64,000 nt of DNA from Alphaproteobacteria bacterium (GCA_009929265.1 SAAU01000003.1:86836-150835); one strand, 5' to 3'. Positions 54,518-59,387 are shown, numbered from the stretch's first letter. Notes: generated by a model from the letters alone, not told the origin. Translations and numbers: made by a program.

Positions 54518-55846
54518 TTGAAACACCTTTTAAATATCTTTATTTTTTTAAGCTTACTGCTTTTTTCTCTTAAAGGAGAGGCTTCTTCTTTTTCTATCAT
54601 AAAAGACACCGAAATTGAAGAAATTCTTTTAAATTACGTGAAAGAAATTTGGAAAAGCGCACATCTTTCAACAAAAGGGGTTCAGGTTATTCTTCTTAAC
54701 GATAAGGATATCAATGCCTTTGTAATTGGAGGACATGAAATTTTTATTCATACCGGCCTGATTTTGGAGTCCGACTCTGCTGATGAAGTTGCGGGCGTTT
54801 TGGCCCACGAAACAGGTCATATTTTAGGGAGCCATACGTCAAGAGCTTCACTTCAAATGAAATCTGCACAAAAAACAGTCCTTTTTACCACTCTTTTGGG
54901 AGGCCTTGCCGCTGCCCTTTCTGGACGAGCCGATGTCGGAATTGCCTTAATGGCAGGCGGCTCTGAAACGGGTATGTCTACCTATAGCGCCTACAGAAGA
55001 TCTGAGGAAAAATTAGCCGATAGCACCGCGATTTCCTTGCTTCAAAAAACCTCGTTTTCGCCATTAGGTTTCCTCAATATTATGAAGAAAATCAATCAAG
55101 TTGAAAAACTTTCTGTTTCCAAAACTTCGCGTTCTTATCTGCGGCAACATCCTATAACTTCCGAAAGAATTATCGCTCTTAAAAATCAGATGAAAGGCGA
55201 TGTTTCTCCTCTTAAAAAACGGGAAGATTTTGAAAGAATGAAAGCCAAACTTTTTGCTTTTTCATATGATGCCGAAAAGACTTTAGCCCGTTATTCTGGA
55301 GCTTCTTTTGCCGATAGATATGCGCAAGTAATTGCTTATTTTAAGCAAATTAACCTTGAAAAATCCCTCGCCCTTCTTGATTCTTTAATAAAAGAAGAGC
55401 CCGAAAATCCCTATCTTTATGAGCTTAAAGGGCAAATTCTTTTTGAAACAGGAAAAGCAAAAGACAGCCTGCCCTTTTGGGAAAAAGCACTTTTACTAAA
55501 ACCCGAGGCTTTCCTTATTCGAATGGAATATGTCCACGCTCTTTTAGAGCTTAACGAAAAGCCGTTTGCAAAAAAAGCCTTAACAGAGCTTTCCTATCTT
55601 TCAGCCTTTGCCCCAAAGATGCCTGAAATTTATAAATACTTCGCAACGGCCTACGATACACTTGGGCAAGAAGCAGATATCCCGCCTGTTATGGCCGAAT
55701 ATTATTTTTTGATTAAGGAATATGAAAAGGCTTTTTTGCTTTCTAAAAAAGCCCTTGAAACGCTCCCTCAAAAAAGTCCTTTGTGGTTTCGAATGAATGA
55801 TTTAAATGAAAGTGCAAAGAAACACATGTCCAAAAAAAATATCTAA
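54518..55846 (+). CDS. M48-family zinc metalloprotease with C-terminal TPR domain (BepA-like)
   Basis: 442 aa with a TTG start and a signal peptide. The HExxH motif is AHETGHILGSH. The C-terminal half is TPR-like. Confidence 0.85.
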   Translation: MKHLLNIFIFLSLLLFSLKGEASSFSIIKDTEIEEILLNYVKEIWKSAHLSTKGVQVILLNDKDINAFVIGGHEIFIHTGLILESDSADEVAGVLAHETGHILGSHTSRASLQMKSAQKTVLFTTLLGGLAAALSGRADVGIALMAGGSETGMSTYSAYRRSEEKLADSTAISLLQKTSFSPLGFLNIMKKINQVEKLSVSKTSRSYLRQHPITSERIIALKNQMKGDVSPLKKREDFERMKAKLFAFSYDAEKTLARYSGASFADRYAQVIAYFKQINLEKSLALLDSLIKEEPENPYLYELKGQILFETGKAKDSLPFWEKALLLKPEAFLIRMEYVHALLELNEKPFAKKALTELSYLSAFAPKMPEIYKYFATAYDTLGQEADIPPVMAEYYFLIKEYEKAFLLSKKALETLPQKSPLWFRMNDLNESAKKHMSKKNI

Positions 55847-58005: not shown

Positions 58006-59387
58006 GAAATCACCTTTACGTTCTTTTTCGGCTTTGATTTGGATTGTGTTAGAATAGAAACACCCCCAATTTTATCCAAAACTTCGTCCTCGTCGTCTCC
58101 GTCATCCCCCTCTTCTGCCTTTTTCTTTTTTAAAGGCGTTTCTTCTTTCTCTTCTTTCTCTTCTTCAACAAGGAAAGAGGCGTAAAATGGAACGTCCTTT
58201 TCCTCTGTTTGAGAAATCTTTTTTTCTTCCGTTAAAGCGGCTTCTTCTTTTTGAAGCGTTTTCTTTTTCATCTCTTCTGCTTCAAGGCTTTCTTTTACCT
58301 CAAGAGCTTTCAATTTTTCAACATGCGTTTCTTTTGGATTTTCTTTCTCTTTTTCATTTAAAGGTTGAGCCGCCTGCTCCTCTTTTTGAGGCTCCCCTTT
58401 TTCTTCAGGCGCTCCCTTCATTTCCCCTTTTTCTTTTTGTAAAGATTGGCCCTCTTTTAAAAGAGGATTTTCAAAAGGTTTATCCTTAAAGAAACTTTCA
58501 AATTCATCTCCTTCTCGCTCTAGAGAATTCACATCGTTTATGTCTCGCAAAGCAGGACGCGTTGGGTTTTTGGTTTGAATTTCCTCTTGCTTGGCTTTAA
58601 GTTTTTCCTCTTGACTAAAGCGTTCCAAACTTTCTTCCATTTCACGGAAAAGCCTATCCAACAACCGCAGTTGACCTTGTGTTTCTTTTTGATGCAGTTT
58701 TTCAAGCATTAAATTTGTTTGATACAGCTGAGAAAGCGACATTTGAACCGTCTTATCAATTCGAACCCCCATCAGGTTAATGCCATCTAATACATACGCA
58801 TTTAAATCCAAATCGGCGATATTTAACTTAGATAAATCAAGCATACGCAAATCCAAAAAGCGCAACTCTTCCTTAGGAATGGCACGAATATCAATTTTTC
58901 CAGCTTCAACTTCTTTGACAATCCATTCCAAAAGTGTTAGATATTTTTTATCTTTTTCGGAAATCTTGGCCCCATCAACAGAGGTATTTCGGACAAAGAC
59001 GCCTTTTAAGACAGCCTCTGTCAAATCAGCATTATCTAAGCGCGCCCCTTCAAGATAAGCATAAGATAAATCAGCATGAGATAAGTTTGAATCAGATAAA
59101 TCAACGTTCATCAAATTCGCCCCACAAAAATTGACCCCTTGCAAGTCAGCTCCTTGCATATCGGCCCCTTTTAAGTTCAAGCCATGCAAATCCCACCCTT
59201 TAACATTCGTCCCCGATTTTAAAGCGTTTAAAAAGGCTTTTGCATTTTCGTCAGATTTATACGTTTCTTCTTCAGAAGGAAGCACCTCCACCCCATACTT
59301 TATCCCAGGCAAAAAGGAATACATGTCCTTTTCTGTCAAAGGGGCGTCAAATCTTCTTTGCGGGCGTGTCATCTTCTCATCAGTCAT
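58002..59387 (-). CDS. Pentapeptide-repeat protein with coiled-coil, KE-rich disordered region and basic C-terminal tail
   Basis: 461 aa. A(D/N)LxX repeats are visible: LHGLNLKGADMQGADLQGVNFCGANLMNVDLSDSNLSHADLSYAYLEGARLDNADLTEAVL. A second shorter block is LRFLDLRMLDLSKLNIADLDL. About 200 aa of K/E-rich sequence follow. The protein ends ...KIGGVSILTQSKSKPKKNVKVIS. Its stop overlaps the start of the next gene (ATGA). Confidence 0.8.
   Translation of the reverse strand: MTDEKMTRPQRRFDAPLTEKDMYSFLPGIKYGVEVLPSEEETYKSDENAKAFLNALKSGTNVKGWDLHGLNLKGADMQGADLQGVNFCGANLMNVDLSDSNLSHADLSYAYLEGARLDNADLTEAVLKGVFVRNTSVDGAKISEKDKKYLTLLEWIVKEVEAGKIDIRAIPKEELRFLDLRMLDLSKLNIADLDLNAYVLDGINLMGVRIDKTVQMSLSQLYQTNLMLEKLHQKETQGQLRLLDRLFREMEESLERFSQEEKLKAKQEEIQTKNPTRPALRDINDVNSLEREGDEFESFFKDKPFENPLLKEGQSLQKEKGEMKGAPEEKGEPQKEEQAAQPLNEKEKENPKETHVEKLKALEVKESLEAEEMKKKTLQKEEAALTEEKKISQTEEKDVPFYASFLVEEEKEEKEETPLKKKKAEEGDDGDDEDEVLDKIGGVSILTQSKSKPKKNVKVIS

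Follow-up and report, generated by a model that had tools for sequence, protein, structure and literature searches.

Why would a chromosome keep a single type IV coupling protein (T4CP) among housekeeping genes, apparently translated together with one pentapeptide-repeat protein (PRP)? The question is raised by a gene pair in a 64,000-nucleotide stretch of DNA from an Alphaproteobacteria bacterium (GCA_009929265.1, SAAU01000003.1:86836-150835), referred to here at its full length as the window. In conjugation and effector secretion, T4CPs control which substrates pass, and how they recognize partners and are regulated by them is known in few systems (such as TraD-TraM, DotL-IcmSW, and Cagβ-CagZ). 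Dedicated T4CP partners are in themselves a known arrangement, as in Cagβ-CagZ and DotL-IcmSW; the case here is a solitary, core-chromosomal T4CP accompanied by one co-translated pentapeptide protein, clade-wide in uncultured gut Alphaproteobacteria. We found no description of a PRP-T4CP pair in the literature on RF32 and type IV secretion systems (T4SSs), on pentapeptide and coupling proteins, or on orphan T4CPs, in line with the initial annotation of the window, made from sequence alone, which did not recognize the pairing as a described system.

The linkage between PRP and T4CP is obligate. We collected 36 loci, searched them with a hidden Markov model (HMM) of PRP orthologues, and based the co-conservation count on those loci of the clade with 34-61% T4CP identity that held enough upstream sequence. 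A PRP orthologue lies directly upstream of T4CP on the same strand in all 25 informative loci (~19 of them non-redundant), and the PRP-T4CP loci occupy at least seven different flanking contexts, including the following (fam4 is a gene described below):

uvrA, pair, M48: the window and one relative (L001)
lspA, pair, addAB or other downstream genes
obg, pair, rpmF-plsX
lpxC, pair, recR
pepN, (fam4), pair, then a flavodiiron gene, mutL or rnhA

The initial annotation had treated the two genes as a unit, and as a unit they are retained across deep divergence and changing neighborhoods. Where synonymous divergence is unsaturated, both genes are under purifying selection. Overall, the ratio of nonsynonymous to synonymous substitution rates (dN/dS) ranges from 0.06 to 0.18 for T4CP and from 0.09 to 0.22 for PRP; one comparison (L018 versus L020, dS ~0.65-0.7) gives 0.07 and 0.15, respectively. 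The order uvrA-PRP-T4CP-M48 is common to the window and L001, whose T4CP is 60% identical. The contig carrying L001 (CAVDQP010000012.1) is filed in a bin of Holdemanella biformis (Firmicutes), has dnaA-uvrA-PRP-T4CP-M48 synteny as in the window, and is very likely a misbinned alphaproteobacterial contig.

In the window, open reading frame (ORF) calls place the pair on the minus strand, together with two regulatory regions:

58002..59387, minus strand: PRP, the 461-aa pentapeptide-repeat partner, predicted to be cytoplasmic (ORF, Pfam PF00805, orthologue upstream of T4CP)
55843..58005, minus strand: T4CP, a predicted VirD4/TraG-family coupling ATPase of 720 aa (Pfam, AlphaFold2 [AF2], Foldseek)
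58002..58016, minus strand: coupling junction, with Shine-Dalgarno-like AAGGTG (58011-58016) inside the PRP coding sequence, then ATGA (58002-58005)
59388..59513, shared divergently with uvrA: intergenic region of 126 nt, AT-rich, the presumed PRP-T4CP promoter region

The ATGA at 58002-58005 is common to the PRP stop codon (TGA) and the T4CP start codon (ATG), and the Shine-Dalgarno sequence AAGGTG sits five bases upstream, within the last PRP codons (minus-strand junction sequence, ...AAGGTGATTTCATGAAA). The same kind of junction occurs throughout: in 24 loci the PRP stop lies at -4 to +5 nt of the T4CP start, either 2-5 nt ahead of it or overlapping it, and across these loci AGGA or GGAG falls within the last PRP codons. 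A scan for promoter and terminator signals between PRP and T4CP found none above shuffled expectation. The arrangement predicts a two-gene operon with translational coupling, whose promoter we place in the 59388..59513 spacer, although a scan of that spacer found no consensus sigma-70 match. Convergent to the pair, and overlapping the T4CP stop, is a gene for an M48 peptidase with tetratricopeptide repeats (54518-55846, plus strand); uvrA (59514-62297, plus strand) diverges from PRP across the 126-nt AT-rich spacer. ORF coordinates and sequence thus confirm the 4-nt overlap and the position between a protease gene and uvrA that the initial annotation had given, the protease being the M48 peptidase.

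The window content is restricted to core-chromosome and housekeeping functions. Pfam scans of every window ORF of at least 150 aa identified mrdA-mreDCB, a hemY-like gene, a SpoU methylase gene, nth, dapB, trmB, metK, glgP, dnaA, gatA/gatB, glyS, mnmA, an OmpA-like gene, a sulfatase gene, tyrS, valS, pgm, aminoacyl-tRNA synthetase genes, an LplT-Aas-like fusion, tpiA, kdsA, eno, a DUF4381-DUF58-MoxR operon, DUF2155, mlaD, and ggt. The same scans found no VirB, Trb, Tra, relaxase, pilin, or plasmid families in the 64 kb and no integrase near the pair, and VirB2-B11 probes from two alphaproteobacterial plasmids had no match in the window or in 29 related loci, bearing out the absence of transfer genes that had been read from the sequence. 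The GC content around the pair (0.38-0.39) is the same as that of its surroundings.

T4CP is a true but divergent member of the VirD4/TraG family and appears to be membrane anchored and ATPase competent. It exceeds the Pfam gathering scores for PF02534 (T4SS-DNA_transf; E = 2e-34, 119.7 bits versus 20.1), PF10412 (TrwB_AAD_bind; 2.7e-13, 50 bits versus 20.5), and PF12696 (TraG-D_C; 5.9e-7, 29.9 bits versus 22). It falls below every NCBIfam subfamily or equivalog cutoff (PRK13897/PRK13850 VirD4, IncP TraG, F TraD, CD1115, MobC), the best being CD1115 VirD4-like at 98.7 bits versus 250, with VirD4 PRK13897 at 71.4 versus 728 and TraG at 68.7 versus 674. The AF2 model, built from 83 homologues, has a predicted local distance difference test (pLDDT) score of 91.6 and a predicted template modeling (pTM) score of 0.84. 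Its first Foldseek match is Helicobacter pylori Cagβ (8dol; E = 2e-21, TM ~0.68), followed by TrwB (E ~1e-13 to 1e-10, TM 0.64-0.71) and, third, Legionella DotL (3e-7), with HerA-type ATPases only afterwards. Neither phmmer with T4CP nor a 17-sequence family profile detected the solved T4CPs in the Protein Data Bank (PDB), so the tie to them is made by fold search only. The family assignment in the initial annotation therefore passes the profile-HMM comparison, with support from the fold. The domains of T4CP are as follows:

57646..58005, minus strand: predicted membrane domain at the N terminus (aa 1-120), in which a conserved loop separates helices 7-45 and 101-116 (AF2 and Kyte-Doolittle hydropathy over 19 residues [KD19])
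57472..57495, minus strand: Walker A GTSGSGKT (aa 171-178), aligned with the family and plasmid T4CPs
56581..57210, minus strand: all-alpha domain (AAD), aa ~266-475, a helical block in the AF2 model and candidate partner-docking domain
56389..56406, minus strand: Walker B FLLDDF (aa 534-539), from alignment

KD19 exceeds 1.6 for windows starting at aa ~15-27, marking a strongly hydrophobic segment at aa ~15-45; by hydropathy alone, the second helix (101-116) is hydrophobic yet under the threshold. Residues W77, H88, W91, S93, and W97 of the N-terminal loop are invariant, as are G176 and K177 of Walker A; in Walker B, D537 is nearly invariant and either D or E fills position 538 throughout the family. 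With VirD4, TraG, and TrwB, the window protein shares a predicted N-terminal membrane domain, the RecA-like nucleotide-binding domain (NBD) with Walker A and B, the inserted AAD, and the TraG-D_C region; it differs from them in being chromosomal, apparently vertically inherited, and never beside virB, trb, tra, or relaxase genes in ~35 loci. A 1,013-aa T4CP homologue (P0090) carries a strongly acidic disordered C-terminal extension of ~290 aa that has no counterpart in other members. This extension is not a PRP, and no Rosetta-stone fusions of PRP and T4CP were found.

The partner protein has an unusual build. PRP matches Pfam Pentapeptide (PF00805) at 5e-18 (64.7 bits versus a gathering score of 20.2) over aa ~60-150, and it is predicted to be cytoplasmic because it has no hydrophobic segment (maximum KD19, 0.97). 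Its AF2 model, from 10 sequences, has a mean pLDDT of 61.7, and its regions are these:

59349..59369, minus strand: N-terminal motif TRPQRRF (aa 7-13; family [KT]RPxxK), R8 and P9 invariant in the orthologue alignment
58938..59255, minus strand: helix plus right-handed pentapeptide beta-helix (aa 45-150, ~17 A(D/N)LXX-type repeats), AF2 pLDDT 85-91
58743..58958, minus strand: linker helix (aa 144-161, ExG-IDIR) plus second LxxLDLRxLDL block (aa ~170-215), PRP-family-specific, with invariant columns
58569..58736, minus strand: long alpha-helix (aa 218-273), putative coiled coil, AF2 pLDDT 81-90
58074..58568, minus strand: disordered K/E-rich spacer (aa 274-438), pLDDT mostly <50 from 279 onward, 41% K+E
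58005..58073, minus strand: basic C-terminal tail (aa 439-461, 6 Lys in 23 aa), no acidic residue

The RP of the N-terminal motif is present in all loci and family representatives, and a conserved LPS...D..A helix lies between this motif and the pentapeptide block in the orthologue alignment. Foldseek matches the beta-helix to NP275 (TMt 0.74, rmsd 1.7), MfpA, Qnr, and the N-terminal domains of NleL and SopA; nothing other than pentapeptide proteins came back when PRP was searched against the PDB by sequence and by fold. The PRP-specific region has invariant E161, G163, D179, R181, D184, D194, L195, G202, N204, L205, and G207, and its second repeat block (~170-215; LxxLDLRxLDL...GVNLxG) is modeled with low AF2 confidence. 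The spacer spans 0-250 aa among orthologues and is not conserved in sequence. The tail is predicted to be unstructured (pLDDT <50) and is divergent in sequence; it is acid-free in every locus, and its last 20 aa carry a net charge of +4 to +10. In the clade with 47-61% T4CP identity it reads ...P-x-[KR]-[IV]-x-G-[KQ]...K-x-K-N-R-N, and in the 34-38% clade ...K-[VI]-[VI]-P-R-R-x-R-V-R-V-K-R-Q-R-Q-K-Q-R-S, with an R-x-R-x-R pattern (deeper-clade C terminus, ...RVRVKRQRQKQRS). In most orthologues the folded N-terminal part (270 aa) has a negative net charge, from -3 to -12. A pentapeptide solenoid, a coiled coil, KE-rich disorder, and an acid-free 23-aa tail with six Lys had all been described in the initial annotation, accurately throughout.

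PRP shares the right-handed quadrilateral A(D/N)LXX beta-helix of pentapeptide proteins such as PipB/PipB2, the N-terminal domain of NleL and SopA, cREM-4, Qnr, and MfpA, and the acidic folded region of most orthologues is a further likeness to the DNA mimics Qnr and MfpA. It is unique among them in its RPxxK motif, second LDLRxLDL block, long helix, disordered spacer, and basic tail. No named NCBIfam subfamily was reached, PRP scoring far under the cutoffs for Qnr (32.8 versus 240) and MfpA (42.9 versus 360). An exhaustive phmmer search of 1.84e9 representative proteins with PRP aa 143-262 yielded about 26-30 co-linear representatives, the rest being long repeat proteins resembling leucine-rich repeats; all but one of the co-linear representatives checked have the N-terminal motif and the basic tail (+3 to +10). 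The PRP family therefore appears small and confined to the T4CP clade as far as sampled. A word-indexed search with a profile of the PRP-specific region gave seven weak generic pentapeptide matches and missed known orthologues.

Hundreds of T4CP relatives occur in uncultured Alphaproteobacteria sampled by metagenomics of the human gut, the rumen, and similar habitats, and one relative from a genome collection is labeled Candidatus Enterousia. The nearest plasmid T4CPs that are embedded in operons are ~26% identical to the window protein and end full virB2-B4-B8-B9-B10-B11-D4 operons. In a neighbor-joining tree rooted on plasmid homologues, the PRP-associated T4CPs group together, and lineages lacking PRP (the Enterousia-like loci L002-L005, and L035) branch below them, with other lineage-specific genes beside T4CP. 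Because these basal lineages lack PRP, the topology suggests that PRP was recruited once; T4CP was probably already chromosomal and solitary before that single recruitment. The gene seems to have been inherited vertically as a solitary chromosomal gene within this gut and rumen alphaproteobacterial clade.

In the PRP-less loci L002-L005 (Candidatus Enterousia and rumen metagenome-assembled genomes), T4CP is first in a conserved same-strand run that continues with a 411-aa familyless lipoprotein, an LpoB-like lipoprotein, and a VIT1-family membrane protein and is placed between rsmE-like and fabZ/lpxD genes. In L035 (11872-13036), T4CP is followed at gaps of 2-5 nt by genes for two proteins, one of 226 aa and familyless, the other of 159 aa and matching SUKH/SMI1 below threshold (E = 0.02). 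These two may constitute a toxin-immunity-like pair, and there is an autotransporter gene upstream. A 369-aa protein upstream of T4CP in L035 was considered as a cryptic PRP and rejected, as it has no HMM match and is a membrane protein.

We tentatively read PRP as a dedicated client of T4CP that would dock via its basic tail and be handed to a T4SS channel elsewhere; PRP-T4CP binding, the tail as recognition element, export, and the channel itself are parts of this model that we infer. PRP and T4CP would form one functional unit in which T4CP serves as an inner-membrane-anchored, ATPase-competent coupling protein and translational coupling sets a fixed PRP:T4CP ratio. PRP would dock on T4CP, probably on the AAD, through its flexible, basic, acid-free C-terminal tail; T4CP would pass it to the channel of a T4SS whose genes lie elsewhere in the genome, and the pentapeptide beta-helix would be the delivered functional domain. 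The AAD is the usual partner or substrate site in T4CPs. The secreted pentapeptide effectors NleL, SopA, and PipB2 are among the matches of PRP, whose variable disordered spacer looks effector-like, and a constant receptor with changeable clients fits the lineage-specific genes beside T4CP in PRP-less lineages. One class of VirB/D4 translocation signal consists of clusters of positive charge or an Arg motif at the C terminus, such as the Arg motif of Agrobacterium VirF, VirE2, and VirD5 or the BID domain and basic tail of Bartonella Beps (PMC10025392), and a Rickettsia pentapeptide-repeat protein, cREM-4, is a candidate rvh effector (PMC11077975). The PRP tail resembles these signals in being apparently unstructured, net positive, and acid-free, with R-x-R-x-R in the deeper clade; it differs in partly overlapping the ribosome-binding site (RBS) of the downstream gene, and the PRP-T4CP linkage is far tighter than that of known effectors.

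Several points weigh against this client model. Its T4SS channel is assumed, and in ~35 loci the 10 kb on either side of T4CP contain neither a relaxase gene nor a gene for a T4SS channel, as is also true of the 64-kb window. Part of the K/R bias of the tail arises because the last 3-4 codons encode the AGGA/GGAG RBS of T4CP, forcing K, R, or N codons, although the basic, acid-free stretch of ~20 residues appears to exceed this constraint. Support for docking of PRP on the AAD is circumstantial and uses approximate domain boundaries: when the two PRP-bearing clades are compared, conservation within T4CP is highest in the AAD (50%, versus 43% and 33% for the NBD halves), an excess that is gone against PRP-less relatives (39% versus 41%). 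The tree, built without bootstrap, is provisional. Lastly, a partner that is translated strictly 1:1 and retained universally looks more like a subunit, adaptor, or regulator than like cargo.

The last point leads to a different role for PRP, somewhat doubtful as a reading in its own right, as a stoichiometric accessory subunit of T4CP, an adaptor or regulator like CagZ on Cagβ or DotM/DotN/IcmSW/LvgA on DotL. In that role the beta-helix, as a scaffold or a DNA mimic, would gate the ATPase or choose substrates, and the target of the tail would be T4CP, nucleic acid, or anionic lipid. Several features fit such a subunit: translational coupling, with a junction that does not vary in kind across 24 loci; 1:1 retention despite seven or more genomic rearrangements; purifying selection on PRP; over-conservation of the AAD in PRP-bearing clades; and a folded N-terminal part whose net charge is negative in most orthologues, which recalls DNA-mimicking pentapeptide proteins. 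There is also a structural precedent: CagZ binds the AAD of Cagβ and keeps Cagβ an inactive monomer, blocking hexamerization, and that same study is the source of the Cagβ hexamer to which the T4CP model is structurally closest (PMC9886983). Both systems join a T4CP to a lineage-specific partner, with an AAD partner site shown for Cagβ and proposed for the window T4CP; however, CagZ is small, U-shaped, and helical, without pentapeptide repeats, spacer, or basic tail, and the cag genes lie inside a complete T4SS island. PRP, moreover, resembles none of CagZ, IcmS/W, and DotM/N in sequence or fold, a disordered, fast-evolving spacer of 0-250 aa with a signal-like tail would be unusual in a structural subunit, and the basal T4CP lineages function without PRP. 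Given the 1:1 coupling and the Cagβ-CagZ precedent, we consider an adaptor or regulator role about as plausible as cargo. The initial annotation had offered a receptor-substrate or receptor-adaptor pair feeding a T4SS encoded elsewhere, or a T4CP-like ATPase recruited to another function; its factual claims stand, two of the three conditions that it had set for refutation come out in its favor (T4CP scores as a coupling protein by sequence and by fold, and the genes are co-conserved), and its interpretation is partly supported.

Recruitment of this kind, with T4CP and PRP working without any T4SS channel, strikes us as unlikely. T4CP would here be a membrane ATPase of the FtsK/HerA superfamily recruited to an undescribed task, for example to handle or move DNA or protein at the inner membrane, where PRP would act on it as a regulator that mimics DNA. 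The family is solitary in all ~35 loci, PRP-less lineages included; it is inherited beside core genes on a long branch from operon-embedded plasmid T4CPs, it has diverged such that phmmer and the family profile miss all solved T4CPs and no NCBIfam equivalog cutoff is reached, and in the 34-38% clade its operon gains a third gene for a signal-peptide protein of no known family. Yet the canonical T4CP features are all kept (predicted membrane domain with conserved loop, NBD, AAD, and TraG-D_C region), and no alternative partner machinery was identified. T4SS genes are, besides, scattered in other reduced alphaproteobacterial genomes, as with Rickettsiales rvh, so the absence of channel genes within ±10 kb is weak evidence (PMC11077975). 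Like rvh, the window T4CP would be a chromosomal, vertically inherited core T4SS component in a small, low-GC alphaproteobacterial genome (PMC11077975); it differs from rvh in standing alone and in its VirD4 PRK13897 score (71 bits versus 728). Scattered T4SS genes elsewhere in PRP-T4CP genomes are the most likely case. That these gut alphaproteobacteria lack any T4SS channel, and that T4CP and a DNA-mimic-like PRP form an undescribed two-component system, we regard as improbable; a fam4-type signal-peptide protein would take part in such a system in one clade. For rvhD4 itself, the setting is a virB8-B11-D4 cluster.

Two further readings fare much worse. A functionless remnant of a degraded integrative conjugative or mobilizable element, which the initial annotation had named as a possible refutation, would account for the lack of neighboring transfer genes and for a tRNA-Met gene and low-GC stretch 3.5 kb away (62.9-64 kb). 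This is very improbable: both ORFs are intact with catalytic motifs preserved in all lineages, dN/dS is 0.06-0.22, the uvrA-PRP-T4CP-M48 order is common to a relative with a 60% identical T4CP, GC content is like that of the surroundings, and no integrase or relaxase is nearby. Purifying selection on both genes contradicts it, and dN/dS and synteny together effectively refute a decayed integrative conjugative element. It is likewise highly unlikely that PRP is a topoisomerase protector of the Qnr/MfpA type that adjoins T4CP through incidental operon packing, as weak matches to MfpA and Qnr models and structures might suggest; the linkage is obligate rather than incidental, and at 461 aa, with a second repeat block, coiled coil, spacer, and tail, PRP is larger than the ~180-220 aa of these proteins. 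Its NCBIfam scores, far below the curated Qnr and MfpA cutoffs, effectively exclude this reading. A role in anti-phage defense was also considered and rejected, as PADLOC gave no match for T4CP, PRP, or neighboring proteins.

What the pair means depends on which of these holds. The host group comprises prevalent uncultured Alphaproteobacteria of the human and animal gut, and PRP-T4CP would be a simple natural system of one receptor and one client, a tractable model for T4CP-partner recognition. If scattered T4SS genes supply the channel, the system is interesting and unsurprising; if there is no channel, it would be the first T4CP-family ATPase functioning outside type IV secretion, which is much more important.

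Additional genes accompany the pair in some lineages. At most loci of the 34-38% clade, a third same-strand gene lies directly upstream of PRP (L036 is without it). The product of this gene, fam4, is ~330-370 aa long, carries a signal peptide and a K-rich region, and matches nothing in Pfam or PADLOC; the gene occurs in L009 (7533-8588), L034 (7485-8606, overlapping PRP), L016-L018, L020, L021, L023, L024, and L028. In two lineages, ankyrin-repeat genes lie 2-8 kb from the pair (L007, 14188-15261; L036, 19620-20168). Ankyrin proteins are frequently T4SS cargo in other alphaproteobacteria, and their genes near a core T4CP hint at contact-dependent interaction with other cells, perhaps eukaryotic.

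Elsewhere in the window, a minimum in cumulative GC skew near 16 kb and the adjacent dnaA (18765-20153) show that the window spans the chromosomal replication origin region (16000-20153). GC content drops to 0.32 beyond the tRNA-Met gene (62898-62975), which lies 3.5 kb from the pair; the region 62292-64000, which holds a 220-aa ORF (63165-63827) and a 120-aa ORF (62292-62654), both without a Pfam family, may be the edge of an integrated element. A single chain of 1,141 aa (39777-43202) combines a major facilitator superfamily transporter, an acyltransferase, and an AMP-binding enzyme and resembles an LplT-Aas-type lysophospholipid recycling protein. Four consecutive or neighboring ORFs (520, 315, 416, and 250 aa) at 27624-30097 and 46788-48875 have no significant Pfam family, and the DUF4381-DUF58-MoxR (AAA_3) operon at 48123-51308 is preceded by a 250-aa protein without a Pfam match.

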